Source of the DNA: Gammaproteobacteria bacterium Ga0077554
Lineage (GTDB): Bacteria > Pseudomonadota > Gammaproteobacteria > Ga0077554 > Ga007554
Direction: 5' to 3'
NCBI GenBank assembly: GCA_001464585.1
Contig: LNFF01000032.1
Coordinates: forward strand, 149,285-213,284
Length of the DNA: 64,000 bases
Shown here: piece after piece, positions 13,784 through 49,385 of the stretch
Position numbering within the stretch: position 1 is the first letter of the stretch
Layout: the number at the start of each line of letters is the position of its first letter
Notes under the pieces: generated by a model
The model's database searches: none
What the model was told of the DNA's origin: nothing
The model's input: only the letters and a program-made list of their open reading frames with translations
Position numbers and translations under genes: made by a program

Positions 13784-15280
13784 TTATCTGGAGATTGTAC
13801 GCTTTTCCGTAATTTTCATTAAACTCTGACGAGCAAGTTCATCACCTTGTTCTGCCGCTTTGCGGTACCATTCAGCGGCTTGCTGGTCGTCTTGCGGAAC
13901 ATCGCGGCCATTGGCATATATTTCAGCAAGATTGTGCTGCGCCATGACATTGCCTTGTTCAGCGGCTTTGCGATACCACGACAACGCTTGCGCATAGTCC
14001 TGACTGATGCCCCGCCCTTCTTCATACATGACACCCAAATTATTCTGCGCGGCCGCATGACCTTGCTCTGCTGCTTTGCGATACCATGTGATGGCCTGTG
14101 CCTCATTGCGTGCCGCACCGCGACCTTTAGCAAGCATTAAACCTAAATTATTTTGTGCGGCAGCCTGGCCCAGTTGCGCGGCTTTGCGGTACCATTCTAC
14201 GGCTTGCGCGTCATCCTGAGCCACGCCACGTCCATTTGCATACATGATACCGAGATTGTATTGTGCCAGAGCATTGCCCAACTCAGCGGCCTGACGAAAC
14301 CATTGCACGGCCTGCCTGTCATCTTGCGCAACACCTCGACCATTCATGGACATCAACCCCAGATTAAGACTGGCGGCGGCCTCGCCACGTTGTGCGGCTT
14401 TTTGATACCACTCGGCAGCCTGCGCATCATTTTGCGCGAGGCCCCGCCCCTGTTCATAGAGCGTACCCAGATTGTATTGCGCCAGACCATGCCCTTGCTC
14501 AGCCGCTTTTTGATACCACGCCGCCGCCTGTTTATAGTCTACCCATGCGCCACGGCCTTCGGCATACATCAATCCTGCATCATATTGCGCAAACGAAAAT
14601 CCTTTTTCAGCGGCCTTGAGATACCATGCCAGCGCGCTTGAATCATTACGCGCTACACCCTCACCACGTTCGTACATGCTGCCCAGGCGGTGCTGCGCCC
14701 ATACATAACCCTGCTCTGCCGCCTTGCGATACCATTGAGCGGCGAGTGCGCTGTCCTGAAGTATGCCACGGCCTTTTTCATAGCGTGACGCCAGATTGTA
14801 TTGCGCCAACACATCACCCTGTTGTGCCGCTTTGCGATACCATTCGACGGCCTGCCGATCATCGCGTAGCGTGCCACGGCGATATTCATACATCCACGCC
14901 AGACTATATTGCGCAGAGGCAAGCCCCTGCTCGGCCGCTTTGCGATACCACCCCAGCGCCTGCTTGTCGTCACGCGGCACGCCCCAGCCATTGGCATACA
15001 TTAATCCAAGATTATATTGCGCGATGGCGTAGCCTTGGTCTGCGGCCTTGCGATACCACTCTTCCGCTTGCTTATAGTCACGCGCCGCGCCGCGCTCATT
15101 GGCATATACACCTGCAAGGCTGTTTTGCGCCAGAACGTCGCCCTGCTCCGCGAGAGGAACCAATTCTTTCAGGGCTGTTTCGGAGTCACCTTTTTCGTAA
15201 GCGGCCACGCCCTCATCAAAACCCGCATGGGAAACACCAGCAAGGCCAAAAAAACATAACAAAAACAATATTTTTTTCAT
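13784..15280 (-). CDS. Secreted Sel1-like repeat protein (12 repeats of 36 aa)
   Basis: Signal peptide; repeated WYRKAAEQG..AQYNLG.MY..GRG. Confidence 0.92.
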   Translation of the reverse strand: MKKILFLLCFFGLAGVSHAGFDEGVAAYEKGDSETALKELVPLAEQGDVLAQNSLAGVYANERGAARDYKQAEEWYRKAADQGYAIAQYNLGLMYANGWGVPRDDKQALGWYRKAAEQGLASAQYSLAWMYEYRRGTLRDDRQAVEWYRKAAQQGDVLAQYNLASRYEKGRGILQDSALAAQWYRKAAEQGYVWAQHRLGSMYERGEGVARNDSSALAWYLKAAEKGFSFAQYDAGLMYAEGRGAWVDYKQAAAWYQKAAEQGHGLAQYNLGTLYEQGRGLAQNDAQAAEWYQKAAQRGEAAASLNLGLMSMNGRGVAQDDRQAVQWFRQAAELGNALAQYNLGIMYANGRGVAQDDAQAVEWYRKAAQLGQAAAQNNLGLMLAKGRGAARNEAQAITWYRKAAEQGHAAAQNNLGVMYEEGRGISQDYAQALSWYRKAAEQGNVMAQHNLAEIYANGRDVPQDDQQAAEWYRKAAEQGDELARQSLMKITEKRTISR

Positions 15281-24132: not shown

Positions 24133-25293
24133 ATGAAAAAAATGCGCCTGACCCTCCTCGATAGCGTTGACACCCTGACCGCCGATCAATGGAATGCGTT
24201 GGCGGGTGATACCAATCCCTTTTTGCGCCATGAATTTCTTGTTGCGCTGGAACGTCATCAATGCGTCGGTGCAGCGGCAGGATGGTGGCCGCAACATCTG
24301 ATCGTTGAACATGACGGCCAACTCATCGGTGCAATGCCGATGTATATGAAAAACAATTCCTACGGCGAGTTTGTGTTTGATTGGGATTGGGCGGATGCCT
24401 ATCATCGTGCCGGGCTGCGCTATTATCCCAAGCTGGTGGTGGCTGTGCCTTATACCCCGGCCACGGGGTCGCGCCTGCTACTTGCAGATACACAGCAACG
24501 CGCGCAGGTTGCGGATCTGCTGATTAGTGGCGCGATAGAGCATGCGCAACGCAGTAATGCCTCAGGTTTGCACTGGCTGTTTACCAACGCTGCGGACACG
24601 GCGCATCTGGCGCGGCATGGTTTGTTGCAGCGTGTGGGTTGTCAATATCATTGGGAGAATCGGGGCTACCGTGATTTTGATGATTTCCTCAGCCAGTTGT
24701 CAGCCGAAAAACGCAAAAAAATTAAGCGTGAGCGACGTCATGTGAATGATGCGGGCGTAGTGCTGGAGTTGCTGGATGGTCATCAAACCAGCGCGGCGCA
24801 ATGGGCGATTTTTCATGAATTTTATAAATCCACCTTTGACGAAAAAGGCGGCATTGCGTCCTTGACCTTGGAGTTTTTCAAAGAATTGGGAGAAGCCATG
24901 CCCGATCAAACATTGCTGATTATGGCAAGTTATCAGGGCCAGTATGTGGCAGGCTCATTTTTTCTGCGCGGGCGTGATACCTTGTATGGTCGACACTGGG
25001 GTTGTACGGCGCAATTTCATAGCCTGCATTTTGAAGCATGTTATTACCGCGCAATTGAGTATTGCATCGCACAGGGGTTGCAACGTTTTGAAGCGGGCGC
25101 GCAAGGCGAACACAAGATCAGCCGTGGTTTTTTACCTACTCCTACCTATTCCATGCACTGGATAGCCAATGCGCGTTTTCGTGAGGCGATTGATAATTTT
25201 CTGGTGCGTGAAACGCAATCGATTGAACAGTATATGCACGAACTGAAGCAGCACTCCCCTTACAAAAGCCTTTTTCAATCTCTTGGAGTTTGA
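24133..25293 (+). CDS. FemAB-like GNAT protein (DUF482 type)
   Basis: SYGEFVFDW.WA, YYPKL, LYGRHWG, LHFEACYY, FEAGAQGEHK. Confidence 0.88.
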   Translation: MKKMRLTLLDSVDTLTADQWNALAGDTNPFLRHEFLVALERHQCVGAAAGWWPQHLIVEHDGQLIGAMPMYMKNNSYGEFVFDWDWADAYHRAGLRYYPKLVVAVPYTPATGSRLLLADTQQRAQVADLLISGAIEHAQRSNASGLHWLFTNAADTAHLARHGLLQRVGCQYHWENRGYRDFDDFLSQLSAEKRKKIKRERRHVNDAGVVLELLDGHQTSAAQWAIFHEFYKSTFDEKGGIASLTLEFFKELGEAMPDQTLLIMASYQGQYVAGSFFLRGRDTLYGRHWGCTAQFHSLHFEACYYRAIEYCIAQGLQRFEAGAQGEHKISRGFLPTPTYSMHWIANARFREAIDNFLVRETQSIEQYMHELKQHSPYKSLFQSLGV

Positions 25294-25307
25294 TTTCCCC
25301 GGCAGTT

Positions 25308-25370
25308 TGTCATCCCGAACGTAGTGAGGGATCTTGCTTAAGAAGATTCCTCGCGGTGCTCGGAATGACA
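25308..25370. repeat. TGTC-tagged REP-like pair, subtype B
   Basis: TGTCATCCCGAACGTAGTGAGGGATCT ... AGATTCCTCGCGGTGCTCGGAATGACA. Confidence 0.85.
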
Positions 25371-25478
25371 CTTCTTATTGCGAGGATTTTTATTAACCCG
25401 TGAGATGCTTGGTGATACCTTCATCGCGGGCAAAATGATAAATTTTTGAACATACATCCAATGCCCCCAAATTATTCT

Positions 25479-25508
25479 TTGTCTAAACTGAACGGCTGGG
25501 GCTATAAT
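25479..25508 (+). promoter_or_regulatory. Sigma70-type promoter candidate for the EPS operon
   Basis: TTGTCT-N18-TATAAT. Confidence 0.5.
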
Positions 25509-25579
25509 TATAGTATGTAGTAATGTAAGAGATCAAAGGGATTTTGAAACAGGGTCAACCACAGTAAAGGGAATTCGCC

Positions 25580-26410
25580 ATGCATATACATACCCCAAAG
25601 ATTTTTGGTATTGCAATCATTCTGTCTTCTTTGTTGTCGCCCGCCCATGCAGCCGTTGTTGATTTGGATCCGCTGCAAGCGGGTGTATACACTGGCGGTG
25701 ACGGTGTATTGAGCCGCTGGGTACAGACGAAGTCCTCCTGGCCCGGCGTCAATGGTAGCAGCCCCGGTCTTGAAACTCTTGCCGACCAGGATGCCGCCTT
25801 GGCTTTGCCTTCCACCGATTCAAATATCCTGCGCAGTTTCGAAGGTACAGTTGCTACGATCAATTTCTCTGACGATGTGTACCGTGATAAGTGGGCGGCT
25901 ACATGGAGTCCTGCAGGAACGACTCCAGTACCGTTATTCCCCGCCTCCAATGACCCTAATCAGAATGATTTCGCCGTGTCTTTTGCAGGATTCATCGCTA
26001 TCACCACCCCCGGCGAATACAACTTCGGGGTACTTTTTGATGATGCCTTCCGCTTCACGCTGACAGGCGCCAACGGTTCTTATACGATCTTCAAGGATGG
26101 GCTGAATCCGCGCGAGATCGTTGGATTCGATTCAAACTTCGCCCTCGAAGCCGGAATGTATCAATTTTCCCTGGCCTCATTTGAGCATCTGGAAGCCGGT
26201 GTCGTCGCCCTTAACTGGTGGCATGGCCCAACCACGTCCGACTTCGGAGTCATTCCCCCGGGTAACCTGTTTAGCGCCCTGCCGCCTGTGCCGGAACCTG
26301 AGGAATGGCTGCTGTTTGTGGTTGGGTTGCTGACGCTGGCATGGTATTTCCGGAAAAAACCGTCCACTCTTTCTGTACTCGCCACCCCTGCTTTATCCTC
26401 GCAGCCATGA
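25580..26410 (+). CDS. PA14-domain PEP-CTERM protein
   Basis: Signal peptide (AHA); PA14 pattern FAVSFAGFI...GEYNFG..DD.FRF...LEAG.Y; VPEP-TM-RKK sorting signal. Confidence 0.8.
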   Translation: MHIHTPKIFGIAIILSSLLSPAHAAVVDLDPLQAGVYTGGDGVLSRWVQTKSSWPGVNGSSPGLETLADQDAALALPSTDSNILRSFEGTVATINFSDDVYRDKWAATWSPAGTTPVPLFPASNDPNQNDFAVSFAGFIAITTPGEYNFGVLFDDAFRFTLTGANGSYTIFKDGLNPREIVGFDSNFALEAGMYQFSLASFEHLEAGVVALNWWHGPTTSDFGVIPPGNLFSALPPVPEPEEWLLFVVGLLTLAWYFRKKPSTLSVLATPALSSQP

Positions 26411-26778
26411 CACGGCAACCTCTTGCATCGCTGGGCCATCGCATCGTCCATGCGCTGGCAATTGGTGGCGGCTGGTTTATCTATTTCTGGTTATGGTGGC
26501 GCGTCATTTACGTGTATGGCCAGGGTTTGAGTCCGCTGGTAGCGCTGTTTCTCGTCATCACCATCATTATCGTACCTACCATTACCCTGATCTGGATCTT
26601 GCACAATGTCCGTATCTTCAAGCGCAAAGGTCTGCGGCGCGGTCGTACCACCACCCAAGACAATTATGTTTCCGACTGGAAAGGACGCCGTGTAACAGCA
26701 GACTGGATCAACATGAAACAGGCGTCGAGCATCGTCATCTCAGTGCGCGAAAACGATAAGCAATACGAGGCAGGATAA
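26407..26778 (+). CDS. PgaD-like two-TM synthase partner
   Basis: ATGA overlap with the preceding gene; 2 TMs then WILHNVRIFKRKGLRR, resembling the PgaD W..YN..RF...RR pattern. Confidence 0.6.
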   Translation: MTRQPLASLGHRIVHALAIGGGWFIYFWLWWRVIYVYGQGLSPLVALFLVITIIIVPTITLIWILHNVRIFKRKGLRRGRTTTQDNYVSDWKGRRVTADWINMKQASSIVISVRENDKQYEAG

Positions 26779-26816
26779 CTCTCGCCACAGATACTTCACA
26801 ACCTAGATAAAAATGC

Positions 26817-28085
26817 ATGGACGCACTCTCGATAATCACATGGATTGACAACAGCCTGTTGTATGCGGCAATGCTGGGTTTCTTTGCCCTGTATCCGATG
26901 GTCACCAGCATTATGTGGATCACGACCTCGATGTTTTTCCGCTGGCGGCAGGAGAAAAACACCACAATGCCGCTCGACACGGCAACCACCTATACGCCGA
27001 AAGTGTCGATACTCATTGCCGCGCACAATGAAGAGGCCGTTATCGAGGCGTCGCTGAAAGCCGCCCATGCCATCGACTACCCGGACTTTGAGGTGGTAGT
27101 AGTGGACGATGGCTCCACGGACCAGACGGCGAATATCGTTGCACGTTACCAGCAATCCCACGGCGTTCGTCTGATCCGCAAAACCATTAACGAAGGCAAG
27201 GCGATGGCGCTCAACGATGCGTTGCCCTGTTTGCGCGGAGAAATTGTGTTGATTCTTGACGCCGATGCTGAACCCGAGCCGCAGGCGCTACGGTATATGG
27301 TGCGCCACTTCGAGAGCGCGCGGGTCGCGGCGGTTACCGGTAATCCCCGTGTTAAAAATGCCACGACGCTGTTATCACGTTTGCAACTCATGGAATTTAC
27401 CTCCATCGTCAGTTTGCTGCGCCGCTCGCAACGCGTATGGGGCCGTCTGCTCACGGTATCCGGCGTGGTATCGGCCTTTCGCAAGGACGCCATTCTGGAT
27501 GTGGGAGGCTTCAGCCCTGAAATGCCTACTGAAGACATCGAACTGACCTGGAAATTGCAGAAACGTTTTTATGATGTGCGCTACGAGCCGAATGCAGTGA
27601 TCTGGATGATCGTGCCGCAAAAGTTACGTGGGCTTTATAAACAGCGCCTGCGCTGGGCGCACGGTTTGATGCAGGTATTGCGCAAACATTACGACATCAT
27701 GCTGCACTGGAAATATCGTCGCATGTGGCCGGTGTATGTAGAGTCGGTGCTCTCAGTGCTTTGGGCGGTATGTTTCGTCGCGCTCACCCTGCTTTGGGGA
27801 GTCTCGTTCAGCCTCGGCCACACACCCATAGGTGCAAACCCATTGCCCAACATCTGGGGCATGCTCATTGCCACCTTCTGTCTGCTGCAATTGCTGGCCG
27901 GCGCAGTGATGGATAAAAAATATGATCCCCATATCATGAAATATTATCCCTACGCGATTTTTTATCCGATCATCTACTGGATGCTGATGTCTGTCACCAC
28001 GGTGATATCGATGACGGCGTTGTTCAGGAAACCGGCCAAACAAGCAGTACGCTGGGATACTGCCCGTAATGGCAAAATGGCGTGA
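26817..28085 (+). CDS. pgaC: Poly-beta-1,6-GlcNAc synthase-like processive GT2 (PgaC/IcaA family)
   Basis: DDGSTD, GKAMALN, DAD, VTGNPR, TVSGV, TEDIE, QRLRW; C-terminal TMs with YPIIYW. Confidence 0.8.
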   Translation: MDALSIITWIDNSLLYAAMLGFFALYPMVTSIMWITTSMFFRWRQEKNTTMPLDTATTYTPKVSILIAAHNEEAVIEASLKAAHAIDYPDFEVVVVDDGSTDQTANIVARYQQSHGVRLIRKTINEGKAMALNDALPCLRGEIVLILDADAEPEPQALRYMVRHFESARVAAVTGNPRVKNATTLLSRLQLMEFTSIVSLLRRSQRVWGRLLTVSGVVSAFRKDAILDVGGFSPEMPTEDIELTWKLQKRFYDVRYEPNAVIWMIVPQKLRGLYKQRLRWAHGLMQVLRKHYDIMLHWKYRRMWPVYVESVLSVLWAVCFVALTLLWGVSFSLGHTPIGANPLPNIWGMLIATFCLLQLLAGAVMDKKYDPHIMKYYPYAIFYPIIYWMLMSVTTVISMTALFRKPAKQAVRWDTARNGKMA

Positions 28086-28091
28086 GGTGAC

Positions 28092-29792
28092 GTGATCACG
28101 ATGAAAGCAAGGATCGCGGTGCCCTTATTGCTGGTGAGTCTGTCGGTGCTGTGGCCGGGGTTGTCGTGCGCCGGAATGCGTGAGGATGCCAGGCAGCTTG
28201 TCGATCAAAAGAATTTCGTCGGCGCCTTGGAAAAGTATGACCGGCTGCTGGCCGAAACACCTGATGACGCCGACCTTCTGATCGAAGCTGGCCGCGTCAA
28301 TGCCTGGGCGGATCGGCACCAGGAGGCGGTAATAATCTATCAGCGCGTTCTCGTTGTGGCGCCGCAACGCCGCAATGACGTATTGCTGCCGCTGGCATGG
28401 CAATTGACCTGGTCGGGACAGCATCGGGGCGCGATCCCACTATTCCGCGAATCTCTCATCGCTGATCCTGATAATCGCGACGCACGACGCGGCCTCGCCG
28501 AAGCACTTAGCGGCGACAACCGTCTGGCGGAGGCATTGGGCGAATACCAGAAGCTGATCGCCTCTAATGCCGGTGACCTGCAAGCGCGTCACGGCGAAGC
28601 ACGCCTGCTGTTATGGATGGATCGTTATGCCGAAGCCGAACAGCGTTATCAGGCGATGCTGCGGGAAAATCCCGACGACAAGGAAGCTGCAATTGGATTG
28701 GCTCGCACACACAACTGGAGTGGCCGACATTTTCTCGCGGCACGCGAATATGAAGCCGCTGCCAGAAAATGGCCTGCGGACGAGACCATCAAAACCGACC
28801 TGGCGACGGCGCAACGCTGGGCGGGAGCCGACAACCTTGCTCTGCGCACGTTGAGCGGAATTTCCGGAGACAGCGCCGCGACACTGCGCCGTCAGATCAA
28901 GATAGATTCGCTTCGTGGGCTGCGCTTCGGCGCCACCACGGCTTATGATACCGACAGGCTGCGGGTTAATACCGCAACGCTGGCGTTCCGTTACCCGTTT
29001 GATGCAACCCGATTATTGCAAACCTCGCTCCGCCGGGCGCAGATCGAACAACGCGGACAGCATGCCGACGGCAAGGAATTACTCGTTTCCTACGGCGACA
29101 GGTTTGGCGCTTTCGATGCGCCACGCGGGATGCTCTGGCCCTCCGTCAGTGCGGGTATCCGCGACTACGAGGGTTGGCAAACCTTTGCATGGCGCGCCGG
29201 TGTAAAGTGGTTGCCCGCCGATCTGTGGCGAATCGATTTCGACGCAGGTAATGAAGTCATCGAAAACATCCCCTCCGTGCGCAACCACGTCACATTCACC
29301 TCTCTTGGCGCAGGAACGGAAGTCAGGATTCATCCGCGCATCACCGCTGCCGCCAGCCTTGGCGTGGGGCGCTTCGATGATGGAAATATCCGTAATCGCT
29401 TGCGGGCACGCATCGAGGGCTTGGTGCTGACCCAACCACGCATCACGCTGGGTTGGGAAGGTTTACGTTTTTCCAACAGCAAACCCGACATCGTGCGTGG
29501 CTACTACAACCCGGAAAGTTATATCGAAAACAAATTGATTACAAGTATCGAAACTACACGCTGGGACTGGAATTTCCAGGCCAGAGCAGGCTTGGGGCGG
29601 CTCAGCGAAGAACCGTCGGGAATAGGCCGTGGAATCTATTCCTGGGAACTTCATGCCTGGCGCTATATCAGGGATTCAACAAACCTGCGCCTGTTTGTCG
29701 GGCGCTCCGATTCCGCCTTCAACTCCAACTCAACATTCGGCAGCGGATACTCGCGTAGCTACGGCGGCATCGATCTAACCATCATCTTCTGA
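28092..29792 (+). CDS. TPR + outer-membrane beta-barrel export protein (PgaA-like)
   Basis: Signal peptide, multiple TPRs, amphipathic beta-strands, YYNP motif, terminal YGGIDLTIIF. Confidence 0.65.
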   Translation: MITMKARIAVPLLLVSLSVLWPGLSCAGMREDARQLVDQKNFVGALEKYDRLLAETPDDADLLIEAGRVNAWADRHQEAVIIYQRVLVVAPQRRNDVLLPLAWQLTWSGQHRGAIPLFRESLIADPDNRDARRGLAEALSGDNRLAEALGEYQKLIASNAGDLQARHGEARLLLWMDRYAEAEQRYQAMLRENPDDKEAAIGLARTHNWSGRHFLAAREYEAAARKWPADETIKTDLATAQRWAGADNLALRTLSGISGDSAATLRRQIKIDSLRGLRFGATTAYDTDRLRVNTATLAFRYPFDATRLLQTSLRRAQIEQRGQHADGKELLVSYGDRFGAFDAPRGMLWPSVSAGIRDYEGWQTFAWRAGVKWLPADLWRIDFDAGNEVIENIPSVRNHVTFTSLGAGTEVRIHPRITAAASLGVGRFDDGNIRNRLRARIEGLVLTQPRITLGWEGLRFSNSKPDIVRGYYNPESYIENKLITSIETTRWDWNFQARAGLGRLSEEPSGIGRGIYSWELHAWRYIRDSTNLRLFVGRSDSAFNSNSTFGSGYSRSYGGIDLTIIF

Positions 29793-29810
29793 CGATCAGC
29801 GCGAATTGGT

Positions 29811-32992
<3,182 letters not shown>

Positions 32993-41600: not shown

Positions 41601-41620
41601 AGATATTGAACAGGCTCTAA
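41601..41620. repeat. IS5/MITE-like end at the island boundary
   Basis: AGATATTGAACAGGCTCTAA; contains the TAG stop of the adjacent gene. Confidence 0.4.
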
Positions 41621-42804
41621 GCTTGGCCGGCCAACCGAGCCGTCTCCGGATCATAGACCACTTCGGTAATCGATCCATCTCGAATGCGCTGAACCGCTTC
41701 GTCAATCACATGGAGCGGTACTAGAAACCACTCCCTTGGCTTCACCGGATTTCCGAAGCGGTCTTCAATGGTCAAGTCTAGCTGCGCTGCACCGAACAAG
41801 CGGTGGAAGATGTTTTCCAGTCTGGTGCGGTTCAGGTTGTGCAGTTTGTAGGTGGCTACCACCTCCACGTCGGCCAACAGATAGGTGGCATCCTTTTCCG
41901 CGCCTGCGATGCGAGTCACTACTTTCCCGCCGGTCACGCCGATCTTGTGGATCAACTCGCGGTGCTCGGCGACGAATGGGTGGCTGGACAGGCTACGCAG
42001 CACGTAGATGGTTCCGGTTTCAATATCATCTGGTTCTGGCGCATCGCCAAACAGCGGTCCCATGTCCGTGCCGGTCAACATGCGAGCGTTTTCGTCTTTA
42101 TAGAGCGCACGCTGTAGCGAGCGCATCAACAGATTGCTTTCGGTACCGTTGGAGTAAACCACACGCAGGCGCGCATCCGGTTCGTTGTTGCTCGTGCGAA
42201 AAATGTCACCCTGCTCGGCCACATAAACCAGCAAACCGCCCAAGACAAAGAAATTGCCTACCTTAAAGTTGGAGTCACGCCCAAACTGGCGGGACTGGCG
42301 AACGCCAGCCTTCAACTCCCGCTCCACCTGCTCAAACAGCGGTTGGAATTTGTCAAAATCTGCGCACGGCGTGCGGTCGGCAATTTCCTCCGCCGCGCGC
42401 TTTTCAACGCTGGAACGCACATGGCGCAGCACGGTGATGTCGTTTTGATTGGCGGGTTCATCGCCAATTCCCAGTTGGGCCAACAAGGCATCTTCGTCCA
42501 AGCCATCCACATCTGACTGAGCCGCTGCCGCACCAGACAACAGGCCGGGGCCATCCAATTCAACCAGCAAGGTTTGCGCTTCTGGCAACTTGCGTAGCTG
42601 GTCCAGGCGCACGGCATACAGGCGTTCGAAGATGTCACGGCCTTCGCCATGCAGCGGGGCGCGACCATGCGTTTGATGGAAGCGCAGGATGTCCTCAAAG
42701 CCCGCGATGATGCGTTCCTCGCGCGGGGTTCGGCTGAAAACCTTGAATGAGGTGACTTCTACTCCCAGCGCATCCAGCAGTTCGTCATCGTCCATCTCAG
42801 CCAT
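41617..42804 (-). CDS. YeeC-like GIY-YIG / T5orf172 nuclease
   Basis: GTIYVL, HKIGVT, LENIFH, PREWF; start MAEMDD overlaps the helicase stop. Confidence 0.85.
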   Translation of the reverse strand: MAEMDDDELLDALGVEVTSFKVFSRTPREERIIAGFEDILRFHQTHGRAPLHGEGRDIFERLYAVRLDQLRKLPEAQTLLVELDGPGLLSGAAAAQSDVDGLDEDALLAQLGIGDEPANQNDITVLRHVRSSVEKRAAEEIADRTPCADFDKFQPLFEQVERELKAGVRQSRQFGRDSNFKVGNFFVLGGLLVYVAEQGDIFRTSNNEPDARLRVVYSNGTESNLLMRSLQRALYKDENARMLTGTDMGPLFGDAPEPDDIETGTIYVLRSLSSHPFVAEHRELIHKIGVTGGKVVTRIAGAEKDATYLLADVEVVATYKLHNLNRTRLENIFHRLFGAAQLDLTIEDRFGNPVKPREWFLVPLHVIDEAVQRIRDGSITEVVYDPETARLAGQA

Positions 42805-44905
42805 TGCCGGACTCTCCCCGCGCTTGTGCCGCCTTCGCCTGGGCACGGTAGCGCGCCAGCGCAGCCACGCCTTCGGCCATGCGCTTTTCCCATGCGTCGG
42901 TGGAGTTGATGTCCGGCAGGCGGCTACGCTCGTTCTTGAACTGCAAGGCGCGTTTTGCCAGCTCGCGGGCATCCTCTTCGGGGATGCTCACCTTCTTGGC
43001 GGCAATGCTGGCCTGCACCTGGCGCAGCGATTTCTCATCCATCGCTTTGGCCAGCACCGCATAGGCGGCATCGAAGGGGTTGATGCGGTCGATCAGGTCA
43101 ATATCCAGGTCGCGCACGTTAACGAACTTGCGCACCCCATCCAGTAACGCCGTACTGCCTTGCGTTGTTCCATCGCCGTTGGCATCGGCCTGGGCCAACG
43201 CCAGCTTGGCCTGCTGGGTGATGTTCATGGCGGCAATGGCGTGTTGGCGGATGGCCTCCTGGTCGACTGGATTCAAGTCCGGATAACGCTCGCGCACAAT
43301 CTTGCCCATGCGCAACTGAGTCAGCTCTTCGGGCAGGGTGTTCTCCTTGTCGAACAGACCACGCTCCAGCACGGTTTTGTCCTGCAAAAAACTGGTGACG
43401 ACTTCGTTCAAGTCCTCCTTGCAGATACGCGTGGCCTCCGGGCTTTGCGGTGTTGCCAGCCCGTTGATCTCGACGTGAATCTGGCCGGTGTCCTTGTTTA
43501 CCCCGATATTTTGACGACCGTCCTTGTAGCCATCCTCGCCGTAGTCGAAGCCGCCCAATGGGCCGGTGTTTCTTGGCGTGAACTCATAGCGCGGAGCCAA
43601 TACCTGCTCCATCAGCAGACTGGCGGAAATAGCCTTGATCATATCGTTCACCGCTTCGGCCACAGCCGCTTGTTCGGCCGCAGGTTCGGCGATCAGATTG
43701 GTGAAGCGCGCCCGTTCCTTGCCGTCGGCATCACGGGTGGCGCGGCCAATGATCTGCACGATTTCAGTCAGGCTGCTGCGGTAGCCAATGGTCAGCGCGT
43801 GTTCGCACCAGATCCAGTCAAAGCCTTCCTTAGCCATGCCCAGCGCGATGATGATATCCACGTTATCGCGGTTGTTCTTCTGCGTCGGGTCTTTCAGCGC
43901 AGTCAGTACGCGAGAACGCCTGGTCGGATCGCTGTCATCCACCAAATCCGCCACTTTCAGGATACGGCCATCATGGGCCTGCACCAGATGGAAGCCGGTG
44001 GCCGGGTCAACACCTTTCCATTCGCCCAAACCGTGCATGATCTCATTCACCTCGCGCTCCTTATCTTTAAGGCTCTCGCGGGCATTCACATTGGGAATAT
44101 GGACGATGGTTTTCAATGCCGGATCCAACACCTTGGTGACGGCATCCACGTAAGGGCCAGTGTAGAAGAAGTAGCCGATGTCCAGCGACTTGAGCCATTG
44201 GTAGCCGTTGAGCTGCTCGTAGTAGGTGTAAGTGATCGTCTCGAATCTGGCTTCATCCACCGGCCCCAACACGGCCTCGCTGTCGCCACGAAAGTAGGAG
44301 CCGGTCATGGCCACCAGATGCACCTTGTCGCGAGCGATGAATGCGCCCAACTGACTGCCCAGCTTGTTGTCTGGATTGCTGGAGACGTGATGGAACTCGT
44401 CAATCGCAATCAGACGATTATCGAATGCCTCGATACCCAACTCATCCACCGCAAAGCGGAAGGTGGCATGGGTGCAAACCAGCAGCTTGTCGGTGCTTTC
44501 CAGAAACTTGCGCACCGCGTCCACCTTGGACTTGGCCACGCGCGGCTCGTCCACGCCGGGGGCGTTGCACAGATTCCATTGCGGGGCGACCTGCCAATCC
44601 CAATAGAATCCATACTCGCTCAGGGGTTCATCGGCAAAGCTGCCACCAATGGAACGCTCCGGCACCACGATGATGGCCTGCCGCAGGCCCTGATTGTTGA
44701 GCTTGTCCAGTGCGATAAACATCAGCGCGCGGGATTTGCCCGATGCCGGTGGCGATTTGATCAGCAGATACTGCTCGCCGCGCTTGGCATAGGCGCGCTC
44801 CTGCATGGCGCGCATCCCCAGCGCGTTGGCCTTGCTGGACGCCCCGGTGCGCGCCGTGGTGATGGACACCGACGGCACGGTGTAGGTGTTGGTCGGGTTA
44901 ATCAC
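42797..44905 (-). CDS. YeeB-like SF2 DExH helicase/ATPase
   Basis: PPASGKS, IDEFHH, MTGS, MAKEGFD, QIIGRATR. Confidence 0.87.
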   Translation of the reverse strand: MINPTNTYTVPSVSITTARTGASSKANALGMRAMQERAYAKRGEQYLLIKSPPASGKSRALMFIALDKLNNQGLRQAIIVVPERSIGGSFADEPLSEYGFYWDWQVAPQWNLCNAPGVDEPRVAKSKVDAVRKFLESTDKLLVCTHATFRFAVDELGIEAFDNRLIAIDEFHHVSSNPDNKLGSQLGAFIARDKVHLVAMTGSYFRGDSEAVLGPVDEARFETITYTYYEQLNGYQWLKSLDIGYFFYTGPYVDAVTKVLDPALKTIVHIPNVNARESLKDKEREVNEIMHGLGEWKGVDPATGFHLVQAHDGRILKVADLVDDSDPTRRSRVLTALKDPTQKNNRDNVDIIIALGMAKEGFDWIWCEHALTIGYRSSLTEIVQIIGRATRDADGKERARFTNLIAEPAAEQAAVAEAVNDMIKAISASLLMEQVLAPRYEFTPRNTGPLGGFDYGEDGYKDGRQNIGVNKDTGQIHVEINGLATPQSPEATRICKEDLNEVVTSFLQDKTVLERGLFDKENTLPEELTQLRMGKIVRERYPDLNPVDQEAIRQHAIAAMNITQQAKLALAQADANGDGTTQGSTALLDGVRKFVNVRDLDIDLIDRINPFDAAYAVLAKAMDEKSLRQVQASIAAKKVSIPEEDARELAKRALQFKNERSRLPDINSTDAWEKRMAEGVAALARYRAQAKAAQARGESGNG

Positions 44906-44954
44906 TGCGTATCGTCCTCCCTAGATGTGTCGCCGCTAATGGGCTGAACTAATC

Positions 44955-45289
44955 GTCCAACAGGCTGTTGGACAATCAAAACCCGATCAAAACTTTCCTG
45001 AGCCTGTGTTATGTCGCAACTAATTGTTTTTGTTAATTTGTTCATATTTGAGTTGATGACGGCCTACCTGTTTTGCCCGCTCATCCAAAACAGGATCAAA
45101 ACCTTTTGCGTATCTATTACCATCCGTTTCCATCCGTTTCCATCCGATTTTCAAGGCTCACTCCTGGGAAGGGGCTGTGGCGTGTTCGACATACATCGAA
45201 GCCCGCCCAGCGCCACGCAATTCGATCTTGTGTGCAACGACTAGGCGAGATTTATGGCGAGCAAAATCAAAACCCGATCAAAACTTTCC
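44955..45289. repeat. Structured non-coding region with an inverted repeat, 25-bp direct repeats and 10-bp tandem repeats
   Basis: GTCCAACAG-G-CTGTTGGAC; AATCAAAACCCGATCAAAACTTTCC at 44974 and 45265 plus a degenerate copy near 45083; (CCATCCGTTT)x3 at 45120-45149. Confidence 0.8.
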
Positions 45290-45326
45290 CGTTTAGGCCC
45301 AGAACGGGATGTAGCAGATGCGCTAT

Positions 45327-45824
45327 TTAGCTCCCCTCTTCCAGAAATGCATTAAAAAAAACTCTGAAAAGTAGGCTCATGAACATGATGCTGACAGCCA
45401 CCAACCCAAGTGATATGGCTGTAAGCAATTGATCGACGCATATGTCGACAATCCAAACGGAAACGGAACTGACTATGAGTTTATGCTCGTTGTTAGCTGT
45501 TAACCCCATCAAGTTGAGTAACAGCAATACAAAAATCGAAGACAGCGAGGCCAGTGAGCTATATTTAAAATATGCTCTGAGAGTGTGGAGCTTCGTTTGC
45601 GTCTTCTTACGCATATCCTCTTCTTGCCCTAACCTTTTGCTGAAATTCGATCCGAACAGAATGGATAGCCCTGTCAGATAAAAACCGAAAACGATGGAAA
45701 GGAAGGTAATGGTGTTGCTTACAAAAGATTCCGGCAATAGCAGTTTCGCGCTGTAAGAAAAAAACATAACAGCAAAAAATAGGATTGAAGCTAATATTTT
45801 ATGATGACTATACATTGTAGGCAT
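45327..45824 (-). CDS. Hypothetical multi-pass (about 4 TM) membrane protein
   Basis: Four hydrophobic segments with one charged loop; AT-rich; overlaps the upstream gene stop. Confidence 0.7.
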   Translation of the reverse strand: MPTMYSHHKILASILFFAVMFFSYSAKLLLPESFVSNTITFLSIVFGFYLTGLSILFGSNFSKRLGQEEDMRKKTQTKLHTLRAYFKYSSLASLSSIFVLLLLNLMGLTANNEHKLIVSSVSVWIVDICVDQLLTAISLGLVAVSIMFMSLLFRVFFNAFLEEGS

Positions 45825-46614
45825 CCCTTAGCTTTGTAACCGTTTGAGTCTTCACATCGCCTGGGGGGAAAAGGAGTTGGCTATCCTTTTGCAAGGGAAT
45901 GCTGATTTTGTTGATGAATTTATTTGTATCGAATACATTCTCAAATCCTCTTTCATCCTTCCCAATACAAACCATGGTTCTGATGTCTCCGGTACTTTGG
46001 AGGCCTGCAAGCCGAAGAATTCCTTGCTTCAAACCATTTTTCATTGGAATTCTGTATTTGGCCTCTATTGAGAACTCCTCTGGCTCCCCATAGCCAAATA
46101 TATTTTTAAGGCTGGAAAATAGATCGCCTTCACGATTAAATATATCCCTAGATCCAGTAAATTTTACAGTTTCCAGTGATTTTATAACCTCAAGAAAGTC
46201 GCTGATGCTTTTATATATATTTTTAACGACAACCTCTTCATCGGTGAACTTGGAGAGAAAATCTCTTAGGAACCCTTTTTTCTTTAGATTTGAAATGTAG
46301 AAAATGGAAGTTACACTATCGTAAATGGCAAATAGCTGGTCATTTGGCTCTATCTGATGAGCGGTTCTTGGATTGGCTAGCTCAGTGCCAGACGGGATAT
46401 CTATCACAATATCCCGATGTGGCATTGCTTTGCCAACATTTGAGTAGAACCAGTAAAATCTGTCGTCAATCACCTCACGAACGATTTGATGCGAGTATTC
46501 CTCGTGAACAATACTCATCTTCTCAGGGGAGAAGGCTTTCTGGAGGTAATTAGCATCTGGCAACTTACCACCTACCACAAGCTCAAACGAAGAGAATGAT
46601 ACGGAGTCAGTCAT
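45808..46614 (-). CDS. Hypothetical soluble protein (268 aa)
   Basis: AT-rich ORF; ATGA overlap with the methylase stop at 46611-46614. Confidence 0.7.
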   Translation of the reverse strand: MTDSVSFSSFELVVGGKLPDANYLQKAFSPEKMSIVHEEYSHQIVREVIDDRFYWFYSNVGKAMPHRDIVIDIPSGTELANPRTAHQIEPNDQLFAIYDSVTSIFYISNLKKKGFLRDFLSKFTDEEVVVKNIYKSISDFLEVIKSLETVKFTGSRDIFNREGDLFSSLKNIFGYGEPEEFSIEAKYRIPMKNGLKQGILRLAGLQSTGDIRTMVCIGKDERGFENVFDTNKFINKISIPLQKDSQLLFPPGDVKTQTVTKLRDAYNV

Positions 46615-49385
46615 TTTATGACACATCCTTTTTTGCTAGTTATCTTGGTATAAAGCTCAAACAGTTTTTCCAGCCGCTCGGTGTCGTTTTTGAAGCGGCG
46701 GCCGATGTAGATGCGCTCCAGCACCTCGTCGTTGCGCTCATGGGCGTGGCGCAGGTTCTCCGGCATGTTGTCTGGGTCGTACAGGTCGGCGATGGTGGCG
46801 GGGAAATGCGCTTCGCGGGCCAGCAGGATGTTTTCGGCGCAGGTAGTCAGGTCGGTTTTGTTCTGCTCGGTAAGCAGGGGGACGGGGAAGGTGTTCCAGC
46901 CGAGGGTATTGGAGTAGCGATAGCGGGTTTCCAGCTTGCCACAGACAGTACCAATCCAGACCAGATGCAGGCGGGAGGCGATAAGAGCTATATTCCACAG
47001 CGGTGCGTCGTAGAGAGCGAAAGCCTCGCTGGTTACGGTGCTTCGAGCATCGATTAAACCATTGGGTAAAAAAGGGCGATTCTCAGACGAGGTTCTAGGA
47101 ACAGTAATCGTCCACTTTTGAGCGATGTTCATTTCCCTCATCTGGTGTGCCCGCGCAGCCATCTCATTGGCTCCGCTGTCTCGACTCGCCAGCCGCATCG
47201 CTCGCACCCCTTCAACGCGTTGCCGAATGGCATCAATACCCATAGCTTCTTCGAGGTGGACATCCTCAATCCACAGGCAATAGCGTTCCAGACCACGAAT
47301 AAACTCTGCCGAGCCGTAGATACGGCGAATAAAGTGAGCATGCTGCTCTGGTGTTAGACCAAGTGCATCGACTTCATCTCTGGATAGCAGCAGATGTCCG
47401 CCATCAACAGGCTTGTTGCCGAAGGTCATTTCCGCCTGCCCACTCAACGGACGGGATGCCTTGTCCAACATCACACTGTCTCCGGGCACCAAGTAGGCAT
47501 TGATGTGCTCTACCTCCTTCACAATATCCACCGCGTCGCCCTTTCCACTATTGGCGATGGAATACAGGCGGCGCAACGATTTAGTTTGCGATGATAAGCC
47601 CACGATGACCACGGTCACGCCCGCATTGTGGCTGGCGAGATTGGCCCACTTGAACGAGGTGTGCGCAAACGCAATCTTGTTGCCTGTGCTGAAAACCAGC
47701 GGCCAGAGGATGGGAACTTGCTGTCCTTGGCAGATGGAATTGGTGGACACGAACGCGGCGGCAGCATTCGTCTTGGTGCCGTAATCGGCGGCCTTCATGA
47801 ACCAGCCCGCCACATAGTCCAGTGACTTCCAGTTCTTGGTGCGGTTGCCAAAGATGGCTTGCAAATCTGCCTTCTGTTCGTCCGTTTGCCAAGTTGAACC
47901 AAGATACGGCGGGTTGCCACAGATGTAGGTCTCGCCGCCTTCGTTTTTGAAGTCCATTTCCGTCTGATCCAGCGGTGTGTTGAACAAGTCGTCACTAACC
48001 AGCTTCACGCCCGTCCCCGTCGGCGGACAAATGCTCAGCCAATCCAGCCGCAGCGCATTGCCACAGACAATCCAGTTCTGCGCATCCAGCGGCAGAAACT
48101 CCGCCAGCGCATCCTTCTGCCCGCGATACAGTACATCGCACTGGAACTCGGCAATGATGAGCGCAAGGCGCGCTATCTCCGCCGGAAATTCCCGCAGCTC
48201 GATGCCCCGGAAGTTGGTCAGCGGAATCTCGCTGCCCAGATGCGGCTCGCCCCGGCGGTGGTTGATTTCCGCCTCGATCTCGCGCATCTGCTTGTAGGCG
48301 ATGACGAGGAAATTGCCGGAGCCGCAGGCGGGGTCAAACACGCGGATGCGCGCCATGCGTTTGCGCAGGTTCAGCAGCTTGATTTTGTTATCGCCCGCCT
48401 CTGCCAACTGCGCGCGCAGGTCGTCCAGGAACAAGGGGTTCAACACCTTCAGGATGTTGGGCACGCTGGTGTAGTGCATGCCCAATGCGCCGCGCTCTTC
48501 GTCGTCGGCCACGGCCTGGATCATGCTGCCGAAGATGTCCGGGTTGATCTGTTTCCAGTTCAGGCCGCCCGCGTGCAGCAGGTAGGTGCGCGCCATGCGG
48601 GTGAAGCGCGGCACGTCGGTTGCGCCGGAGAACAGGCCGCCATTCACATAGGGGAAGCCATTGGCCCAGTTTGACAAACGGGACTCGGCACTGGCGCGCT
48701 CGGCGTTCTTGATGTTCATGGCGCGGAAGATGACTTGCAGCACCTCATGGGTATTGGCGCCGTCGCGTTCGCTCATTTGCTCAACGGTGTGGGTGAACAG
48801 GCCCTCGCCATTGAAGATGTCGGTGTCTTCGGCAAAGAAACAGAACACCAGCCGCGCCATGAAGTGATTCATGTCGGCGCGGCGCTCGTCCTTGGCCCAG
48901 TCCGGATTTTCTCTCAGCAGCTCGACGTAGAGCTTGTTCAACCGCGTAGTGGCGCGCCTATCTAACTCAGTGTCCTTGAGCTCCTTGGGGAAAGAAATAC
49001 CAGCCAGCGGCAGGAAGAAGCCGAAATGATTGGGGAAGTCCGGGTAGGCGCAAGCAATGGTTTCGCCGCCGACCAACTCTTCGGCCTCCAGAGTCTGCCC
49101 ATCGGTGACGAGGATGAACTTGGCCTTGGCTTTTGTAGTGGCGGGGCTGGCGCGCAACGCTTTGAGGGAAGCACCCACTGCGCCCGCTTCGCACACGGCG
49201 ATATGGATGTTGTTGCGCTGGAGCACGCCCCCCACATCCGAAGCATTGTTGTTGCCCGTGCGCAGGCGCTTGAGTGCCGTGTCCTTATTGCCGAAAGCGG
49301 CCAGAAACGCAAACGGGAACGCCGCCGCGTCGAAGGGCTGAAGAGCCAGGTCCGATATGGCTTCTTCGATTTCTACTGCATTCAT
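46611..49385 (-). CDS. YeeA / MmeI-like N6-adenine DNA methyltransferase with target-recognition domain
   Basis: GMHYTS, FDPACGSGNFL (motif I), GNPPY (motif IV), STNSICQG, RYSNTL..NTFP. Confidence 0.9.
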   Translation of the reverse strand: MNAVEIEEAISDLALQPFDAAAFPFAFLAAFGNKDTALKRLRTGNNNASDVGGVLQRNNIHIAVCEAGAVGASLKALRASPATTKAKAKFILVTDGQTLEAEELVGGETIACAYPDFPNHFGFFLPLAGISFPKELKDTELDRRATTRLNKLYVELLRENPDWAKDERRADMNHFMARLVFCFFAEDTDIFNGEGLFTHTVEQMSERDGANTHEVLQVIFRAMNIKNAERASAESRLSNWANGFPYVNGGLFSGATDVPRFTRMARTYLLHAGGLNWKQINPDIFGSMIQAVADDEERGALGMHYTSVPNILKVLNPLFLDDLRAQLAEAGDNKIKLLNLRKRMARIRVFDPACGSGNFLVIAYKQMREIEAEINHRRGEPHLGSEIPLTNFRGIELREFPAEIARLALIIAEFQCDVLYRGQKDALAEFLPLDAQNWIVCGNALRLDWLSICPPTGTGVKLVSDDLFNTPLDQTEMDFKNEGGETYICGNPPYLGSTWQTDEQKADLQAIFGNRTKNWKSLDYVAGWFMKAADYGTKTNAAAAFVSTNSICQGQQVPILWPLVFSTGNKIAFAHTSFKWANLASHNAGVTVVIVGLSSQTKSLRRLYSIANSGKGDAVDIVKEVEHINAYLVPGDSVMLDKASRPLSGQAEMTFGNKPVDGGHLLLSRDEVDALGLTPEQHAHFIRRIYGSAEFIRGLERYCLWIEDVHLEEAMGIDAIRQRVEGVRAMRLASRDSGANEMAARAHQMREMNIAQKWTITVPRTSSENRPFLPNGLIDARSTVTSEAFALYDAPLWNIALIASRLHLVWIGTVCGKLETRYRYSNTLGWNTFPVPLLTEQNKTDLTTCAENILLAREAHFPATIADLYDPDNMPENLRHAHERNDEVLERIYIGRRFKNDTERLEKLFELYTKITSKKGCVIK

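Follow-up and report, generated by a model that had tools for sequence, protein, structure and literature searches.

A PA14-fold protein with a PEP-CTERM-type tag leads a conserved, PgaB-less synthase operon: a candidate lectin for the operon's own polymer

The 64,000-nucleotide stretch of Gammaproteobacteria bacterium Ga0077554 analysed here (hereafter the window; positions 149,285 to 213,284 of contig LNFF01000032.1) carries, between positions 25580 and 29792, a four-gene operon-like cluster in which a PA14-fold protein with a PEP-CTERM-type sorting tag (P1) precedes a small membrane protein (P2), a PgaC-like family 2 glycosyltransferase (GT2; P3), and a predicted outer-membrane export porin (P4). 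The arrangement recurs in other genomes with P1 in the leading position, and no PgaB accompanies it in the window's own genome. We tentatively favour the reading, to which we give somewhat less than an even chance, that P1 is an exosortase-processed PA14 lectin dedicated to the polymer made by its own operon, keeping that polymer associated with the cell or the matrix. No paper in our literature searches described a pga-like operon containing a PA14/PEP-CTERM gene, with the accessible portion of the epsSMASH paper treating exosortase and poly-N-acetylglucosamine (PNAG) systems separately, and that of the EmbRS paper concerning Wzy-type loci. The combination of parts, together with the absence of PgaB, is new, each part being of a known kind. 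The four genes are as follows (aa, amino acids).

25580-26410, plus strand: P1, PA14-fold/PEP-CTERM protein, 276 aa (open reading frame; AF2 model, Foldseek, VIA, profile search)
26407-26778, plus strand: P2, small membrane protein in the PgaD position, 123 aa (ATGA overlap, alignment, hydropathy)
26817-28085, plus strand: P3, PgaC-like processive GT2 synthase, 422 aa (TIGR03937 and Pfam GT2 matches, motifs)
28092-29792, plus strand: P4, predicted outer-membrane export porin, 566 aa (TPR and barrel families, AF2 model, Foldseek)

The open reading frames and their junctions bear out the four co-oriented genes, ATGA overlap, and 6-bp gap described in the initial annotation. P1 and P2 overlap at 26407-26410, with the ATG inside the overlap serving as the start of P2, and 38 nucleotides separate the P2 stop from the P3 start. 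P4 is taken to start at the GTG at 28092, leaving 6 nucleotides after the P3 stop at 28085 if that GTG is the start (an alternative in-frame ATG lies at 28101). These spacings suggest that P1 to P4 may form a single transcript. Upstream of P1 is a spacer of 286 nucleotides, and downstream the gene pgi is convergent to the operon, its stop lying 18 nucleotides beyond that of P4.

Whilst the window copy of P1 misses the Pfam cut-off for PA14, its predicted structure clearly makes it a PA14-fold protein. The AF2 model, built with 19 homologues, has a pLDDT of 80.4 and a pTM of 0.74, and every top Foldseek match is a PA14 domain, those found being from RsgI sensors, the MpIBP lectin, Cea1A, the Epa and Flo adhesins, and toxins. 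VIA alignment of residues 26-239 gives Z scores of 15.1 (6qdi), 14.4 (5j6y), and 13.2 (6m8m), with the best superpositions (Z of 15.1, 14.4, and 14.2) having an rmsd of 2.9-3.5 over 140-161 residues. The P1 family profile reaches RsgI PA14 chains by sequence alone (E of 4e-12 for 6qdi and 5e-8 for 6qe7), such that fold and profile agree on the PA14 region first proposed from the window. The parts of P1 are given below.

25580-25651, plus strand: predicted signal peptide, residues 1-24 (...AHA|A; hydrophobic segment 8-29, AHA conserved, cleavage site inferred)
25655-26296, plus strand: PA14 beta-sandwich domain, residues 26-239 (AF2 model, Foldseek, VIA)
26039-26044, plus strand: D154-D155, aligned with the DcisD motif of PA14 lectins (HMMER alignments)
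26285-26356, plus strand: PEP-CTERM region, residues 236-259 (VPEP, helix, RKK), followed by a 16-residue tail (Pfam match 236-259, E of 0.056)

The adjacent Asp pair noted earlier is present as D154-D155 within FDDAF, and HMMER alignments place it on the DD/DN of RsgI PA14 and the DD of MpPA14, solved PA14 domains in which this position is the DcisD or DcisN motif. According to the accessible parts of two papers, the DcisD motif of PA14 domains holds the sugar-binding Ca2+ (PMC8092209, PMC6852018). In an alignment of 38 family rows, in which L011/P0009 and L014/P0010 are identical proteins (here G numbers denote genomes, G000 being the window's own, L numbers loci, and P numbers with four digits protein homologues), the first Asp is invariant (38/38). 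Sugar binding by P1 is thus suggested by the Asp pair and the PA14 fold together. At the C-terminus, VPEP (237-240) is followed by a helix in the model (242-259), the basic cluster RKK (258-260), and the tail. Of the 38 rows, 33 have [VI]PEP and five a PxP variant, with a hydrophobic helix and a basic cluster then following. Because the PEP motif is conserved, exosortase processing is suggested rather than a mere anchor. The earlier PEP-CTERM assignment stands in its motif architecture and in the homologues that pass the PEP-CTERM cut-off (L030, 30.9 bits; P0032, 27.3; P0027, 25.8; L012, 25.5; P0046, 23.8; P0025, 22.8; P0064, 21.8), but not in the score of the window copy. For PA14, P0046 passes the 24-bit cut-off with 25.8 bits, hence passing both, and L012 (23.8), P0025 (23.6), and P0026 (23.2) lie just below it.

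P1 has a family of its own, with 39 representatives at 50% identity found at E of 1e-30 or below, mostly as full-length matches of 250-340 aa, the weaker matches coming from PA14 repeats within giant proteins. Among NCBIfam models, none reaches its cut-off on the family. In the ESM Atlas, the top match by features (score 0.98) is a cluster of 352 members, of which 44% carry PEP-CTERM and 22% PA14. Thiobacillus-type P1 proteins stop 2-6 residues past the basic cluster, and those of the window clade have a tail of 6-17 residues after the tag. P0046 is longer (477 aa), and its N-terminal extension matches no Pfam family. Apparent P1-P2 fusions in L016, L019, and L021 were rejected, as a stop codon lies 5 nucleotides before the P2 ATG and the tblastn match had run over it. 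The P1 frame of G004 (L013:7001-8011) extends to 336 aa, with the usual stop missing, and the P4 of the same genome is split over two frames (L013:9699-11401); in L028, P3 (8280-9534) and P4 (9738-11392) are each in two pieces. All of these may be frameshifts or assembly errors of metagenome-assembled genomes (MAGs).

P1 homologues occur in five of 61 relatives besides G000, one of these (G019) being a weak, PA14-only match within a 1163-aa frame, and the order P1-P2-P3-P4 is retained in G004, G007, and G009. A pattern scan with one genome per species yielded 17 loci, titled Thiobacillus, Sulfuriferula, Hydrogenophilales, Burkholderiales, and other MAGs, with identities of 35-47% for P1 and 57-66% for P3. 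The order P1-P2-P3 is present in 16 of the 17, with P4 also present in 15; the incomplete loci are contig ends, L015 ending ~150 nucleotides after P1 and L029 after P3. Conversely, in a sample of 81 genomes from the family to which the Thiobacillus MAG G062 belongs, four bear P2, and P1 lies directly upstream in all four. Linkage of the PEP-CTERM gene to homologous clusters elsewhere had been set beforehand as one of the tests on which the initial annotation could fail, and it was found in the scanned loci, the three relatives, and the four P2-bearing genomes alike. That a PEP-CTERM gene merely happens to sit upstream of a pga-like operon would be in keeping with the many PEP-CTERM genes in this genome, at least 15 matches over cut-off besides the window P1, and with a promoter match that is not significant alone. 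However, the order is kept at 35-47% P1 identity in many genomes with spacings of 0-20 nucleotides or overlaps, and there is a second type of synthase with a P1 of its own, such that these conserved loci contradict chance adjacency and leave it barely credible. The arrangement is more than chance because it is conserved in other genomes, and not on the evidence of the window alone.

This second type of cluster, termed type B to distinguish it from the P1-P2-P3-P4 type (type A), consists of a P1 homologue (P1'), then a GT2 of 456-506 aa (GT2', ~32% identical to P3), then a short TPR/barrel protein, with no P2-like gene. Type B clusters are carried by G081, G091, and G118 of the 81-genome sample, and by G001 of the window's genus, at the following positions.

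L030:7650-11271, type B cluster
L031:1162-4538, type B cluster
L032:4938-8439, type B cluster
L012:7039-10170, type B cluster

Their GT2' proteins have chitin-synthase-like Pfam matches, and the TPR/barrel proteins are 470-475 aa long, or 310 aa in G001. The genes are co-oriented in three genomes, with the P1 homologue inverted in G001, and neighbouring genes include nadC (G081, G091) and clpB (G081, G118). In maximum-likelihood trees of 21 paired P1 and GT2 rows (L015 and L028 being left out as they hold no whole GT2), type B falls on one side of a branch in both trees (support of 98/96 for P1 and 100/100 for GT2), and the main subclades agree. The trees conflict at one point, with the P1 proteins of the window clade (the window, L013, L011, and L014) grouping with type B P1 (95/94), and their GT2 proteins lying within type A. 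This conflict may reflect either exchange of the P1 gene between cluster types, or a rooting or long-branch effect.

The co-divergence of P1 with the synthase, each cluster type having its own P1 clade, bears on the alternative that P1 acts as an adhesin at the surface, recognising foreign glycans on other cells, on surfaces, or on particles, and is merely co-expressed with the polymer. The nearest solved PA14 lectins are indeed domains of adhesins or sensors, with external sugars as their ligands (PMC8092209, in its accessible part), however neither the co-divergence nor the tight, obligatory linkage would be expected of such an adhesin, and we regard it as improbable. Because of this co-divergence and obligatory linkage, a role specific to the partner genes is suggested for P1.

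The remaining three genes resemble a synthase-dependent export system. P3 has the processive GT2 motifs DDGS (97), DAD (148), TED (238), and QRLRW (276), hydrophobic segments at 14-35, 303-335, 343-366, and 380-403, and matches to Pfam GT2 families, whilst its score against the PgaC/IcaA equivalog TIGR03937 (404.8 bits) is under the 422.3-bit cut-off. Of the claim of a PNAG synthase, the PgaC-like GT2 motifs therefore stand, but the score below cut-off and the lack of PgaB do not allow the product to be named. P2, lying immediately upstream of P3 in 16 of 16 informative loci, has two hydrophobic segments (~13-37 by eye, 33-71 by hydropathy), with a conserved HN..I..RKGxR stretch after the second in an alignment of homologues. 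Its match to PgaD (PF13994) is not significant (E of 0.21, 12 bits, cut-off 27), PF13994 is matched at E of 1 or below in only four of 16 P2 homologues (best 0.0098), and no match below E of 3 was found among solved structures. The "pgaD-like" label thus holds for size, position, and the two hydrophobic segments, but the profile does not support it, and the likeness to PgaD appears only positional.

P4 could be seen as a porin only by fold search, because its matches by sequence to solved structures (the best 60 of 123 at E of 0.01 or below) are only generic TPR or helical-repeat proteins. The AF2 model (pLDDT 88.2) has 15 helices followed by 16 strands, and Foldseek matches it to BcsC (9b8a, 1.5e-13), PelBC (9h80, chain M, 3e-12), and the PgaA barrel (4y25, 9.3e-12; target TM of 0.80, rmsd of 3.7). 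Its TPR families match, and its scores against PgaA models are below cut-off (TIGR03939, E of 1.5e-21 and 76.3 bits compared with 366.65; PgaA_barrel PF21197, 24.4 compared with 27). As judged from the model, P4 belongs to the TPR/barrel porin class of PgaA, BcsC, and PelB.

28152-28910, plus strand: P4 TPR-like helical domain, residues 21-273, 15 helices (DSSP of the model, TPR Pfam matches)
28917-29786, plus strand: P4 beta-barrel, residues 276-565, 16 strands (DSSP of the model, 4y25 match)

In E. coli, PgaB is required for export of the polymer. In G000, no match to the PgaB model TIGR03938 was found at E of 1e-20 or below, and none above cut-off in any of the four P1-type genomes G000, G004, G007, and G009, whose PgaC-like scores are 388-405 bits. 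Among the same 61 genomes, canonical PgaC (601-633 bits) is found in G019 and G021, each time directly beside PgaB (829-850 bits). G000 does encode three unrelated PF01522 deacetylases on other contigs, one of them in the xrtA neighbourhood. A rearranged pga organisation with no detectable pgaB or pgaD has been described in environmental bacteria (PMC7112194); the accessible text of that paper mentions no such PA14/PEP-CTERM gene, and the organisation it describes may be the present cluster.

The absence of PgaB is the starting point of the main rival to the reading we favour, namely that P1 takes the place of PgaB in the periplasm, either anchored by its helix or released, that its PA14 domain binds the nascent chain and passes it from P3/P2 to P4, and that it is needed for export rather than for surface retention. 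This is compatible with the favoured reading, the two not being exclusive, and we consider it unlikely, though a serious candidate. The distribution of PgaB and canonical PgaC described above fits it, as does P1 being the only other exported protein of the operon and, as a core part would be, present in every type A cluster seen and in the type B triad. P4 also keeps its TPR domain, the equivalent of which in PgaA binds PNAG and modulates PgaB (PMC9384988, in its accessible part). A predicted complex of the P4 TPR domain (27-265) with the P1 PA14 domain (24-236) scored 0.00 compared with a mark of 0.32, in a run without controls, which speaks neither for nor against binding. In contrast, a plain membrane anchor would have no need of the conserved PEP motif, and P1 diverges faster than P2-P4 among close relatives (identities between the window and G009 of 64% for P1, 83% for P2, 94% for P3, and 85% for P4), which is unusual for a core part of a machine and fits an exposed protein. 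No longer or fused P1 form was found at E of 1e-5 or below among 8000 scored candidates of 484-2000 aa, which is weak evidence against a PgaB-like role.

For P1 to be processed, an exosortase is needed in the genome, and here the expectation was confirmed twofold, with G000 encoding XrtA (368.3 bits, cut-off 208) with a fused EpsI domain, and XrtB (418.4 bits, cut-off 275) with a B-type EpsI. The xrtA locus is on contig C8 and the operon on C32, and no exosortase gene adjoins the operon. An exosortase was found in 14 of the 17 P1-carrying genomes tested.

Under the favoured reading, the operon would be a self-contained, PgaB-less, synthase-dependent exopolysaccharide (EPS) system. P3, with its small membrane partner P2, would polymerise a beta-linked polymer, probably based on N-acetylglucosamine (GlcNAc), and move it across the inner membrane, from where the P4 porin would export it. 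P1 would carry a Sec signal peptide when made, stay in the inner membrane through its PEP-CTERM helix, and then be processed by XrtA or XrtB, whereupon, as a PA14-type and probably Ca2+-dependent lectin, it would bind the operon's own polymer and keep it at the envelope or in the matrix. Such an effect of a PEP-CTERM protein is seen in Aquincola, where overexpression of PepA shifted EPS from the soluble to the cell-bound form (PMC9850573, in its accessible part).

Several observations weigh against this reading. The window P1 scores only 14.1 bits for PA14 (PF07691; E of 0.043, gathering cut-off of 24 bits), and 14.0 bits for PEP-CTERM (PF07589/TIGR02595; E of 0.056, cut-off of 20.7). A PEP-CTERM tag usually stands at the end of the protein, whereas that of the window P1, with its 16-residue tail, is not terminal. 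The second Asp of the pair is Glu in six of the 38 rows (four distinct proteins of one subclade), and the Tyr-x-Asn of Ca-binding-loop 2 aligns to [FY]-E-[HR]-L-E-A-G, in a register uncertain by one residue. Canonical Ca2+ geometry is therefore not assured in P1, and an Arg, where the alignment places one at the loop-2 position, would not bind Ca2+. No exosortase was found in three P1 carriers (G004, which is 85% complete, G066, and G081), and in the 81-genome sample an exosortase is present in six of seven P1 carriers compared with 47 of 74 non-carriers. Because 53 of these 81 genomes have one, co-occurrence is not discriminating, and the presence of an exosortase shows compatibility with P1 processing, not dependence on it. 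P3 is below the PgaC equivalog cut-off, and PNAG is no more than a candidate product. Finally, P1 being obligatory in a PgaB-less system, a part in the export machinery suits it no less than that of a surface tether.

A more radical mechanism, which we hold to be very improbable, is that the exosortase acts as a sortase, cleaving P1 at the PEP motif and forming a covalent bond between the C-terminus so created and the growing polymer, for instance at the free amine of a de-N-acetylated sugar. The polysaccharide, capped by a lectin, would then leave via P4 and could cross-link other chains. If true, this would supply the long-sought acceptor of exosortase transpeptidation, and would explain why a PEP-CTERM lectin is the obligatory first gene of two PgaB-less types of synthase operon.

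The region upstream of P1 holds one candidate promoter.

25479-25508, plus strand: sigma-70-like promoter match TTGTCT-18-TATAAT (10/12 positions; hexamers kept in G004)

The initial annotation proposed a single sigma70-like promoter. Both hexamers of this match are retained upstream of the operon in G004, a relative of the same genus; a scan of 4.8 kb, however, returned six such sites compared with 3.8 ± 2.2 in shuffled sequence, such that the match by itself is not significant. An Rfam scan of 25150-25700 gave only a chance snoRNA match (E of 0.43). The putative P1 leader (25515-25579) contains two AAGGGA motifs, one over the ribosome-binding site, with similar motifs in G004 and G007, and the window's genome encodes CsrA (G000:C31:90450-90605, 91.1 bits). 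In E. coli, CsrA represses pgaA via AAGGGA-like sites. The next gene upstream (24133-25293), a FemAB_like (PF04339) gene with no NCBIfam match, was considered as a part of the system, FemAB-related genes being known in XrtA loci, and rejected, as it is syntenic only in G004, and not in G007, G009, or the Thiobacillus-type loci. Downstream, where pgi lies in the window, G009 (L011:11160-14824) and G007 (L014:11187-14797) have another synthase-type cluster convergent to P4, comprising a response regulator, a YaiO-like barrel, a HEAT-repeat protein, and a 470-aa GT2.

Elsewhere in the window, the stretch 41617-49385, of uneven GC content (0.50-0.59), is likely a defence or mobile stretch, with an MmeI-family restriction-modification enzyme (46611-49385), a T5orf172/MUG113 protein (41617-42972), and three open reading frames with no Pfam match (42797-44905, 45327-45824, and 45808-46626). 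At 13784-15280 is a 498-aa protein of 11 Sel1 repeats (E of 7e-122), adjoined by a 236-aa open reading frame with no Pfam match.

The operon region itself (25400-29900) was found at 80-92% of sampled words in six runs from two studies, labelled as drinking-water or biofilter metagenomes, and the system may bear on the retention of biofilm in such settings. Two activated-carbon runs also contain the region, and may be the source of this DNA. More generally, the function of the PEP-CTERM/exosortase system is still open, the known cargo proteins being numerous, mostly of no recognisable fold, and encoded in large Wzy-type loci. P1, a putative cargo, has a well-understood lectin fold and is tied in at least 20 genomes to the three genes of a polymer machine, and the four-gene system offers a simple model, one that could be set up in laboratory hosts either having or lacking an exosortase. 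A PNAG-like pair of synthase and porin can, as seen here, occur where PgaB is absent, which prompts the question of how its chain would then traverse the periplasm.

Compared with E. coli pgaABCD, the operon shares a GT2 with the D, DxD, TED, and QxxRW motifs, a small membrane partner beside the synthase, and a P4 whose TPR domain is followed by a predicted 16-strand barrel that superposes on the PgaA barrel (4y25). It differs in its order, P1-D-C-A rather than A-B-C-D, in the extra PA14/PEP-CTERM gene, in the absence of PgaB from both cluster and genome, and in a P2 that is not significantly PgaD. P3 scores well below the canonical PgaC of G019 and G021, and P4, at 566 aa, is shorter than the 800-position PgaA model. 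PgaC-like GT2 proteins have already been tied to other exosortase systems, through the XrtG-associated TIGR03111 and the XrtP-associated NF053846, and P3 matches both weakly (E of 7e-28, 97.6 bits compared with a cut-off of 363.95, and E of 2.3e-16, 59.5 bits compared with 520, respectively).

PEP-CTERM genes described so far go with Wzy-type EPS loci and with PrsK/PrsR/RpoN control. P1, by contrast, has a defined lectin fold and lies in a synthase-dependent operon far from the xrtA locus. In common with the PEP-CTERM/XrtA system of PepA in Aquincola tertiaricarbonis, its C-terminal region has a PEP motif, a helix, and a basic cluster, and its genome encodes exosortases; with PepA, more of the EPS is bound to cells and less is soluble (PMC9850573, in its accessible part). 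The likeness of P1 to the PA14 domains of MpIBP, RsgI, and the yeast Flo, Epa, and Cea1 proteins lies in the predicted beta-sandwich (Z of 10-15) and the Asp pair at the DcisD position; in contrast to these, P1 consists of one small domain plus a sorting tag, rather than being part of a giant adhesin or an anti-sigma factor, and, compared by sequence alone, its Ca-binding-loop-2 signature is not evidently kept.

Two further comparisons concern the design of P1 and its proposed action. TraA combines a PA14-like domain with a MYXO-CTERM sorting tag of the exosortase/archaeosortase superfamily kind, and is larger than P1, with Cys-rich repeats and a role in outer-membrane exchange, and not encoded in a polysaccharide operon. 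Like TraA, P1 consists of a PA14-type domain and a C-terminal sorting tag, and a paper on TraA of Myxococcus xanthus was the only one found in our searches to mention both PEP-CTERM and a PA14 domain (PMC3325183). The action proposed for P1, that of a secreted protein which binds and retains the cell's own polymer, would by analogy be like that of LecB, CdrA, and RbmA. Such matrix lectins, retaining their own EPS, include LecB and CdrA with Psl, and RbmA, Bap1, and RbmC with VPS. The folds and secretion routes of these proteins are unrelated to those of P1, and none is known to carry a PEP-CTERM tag.

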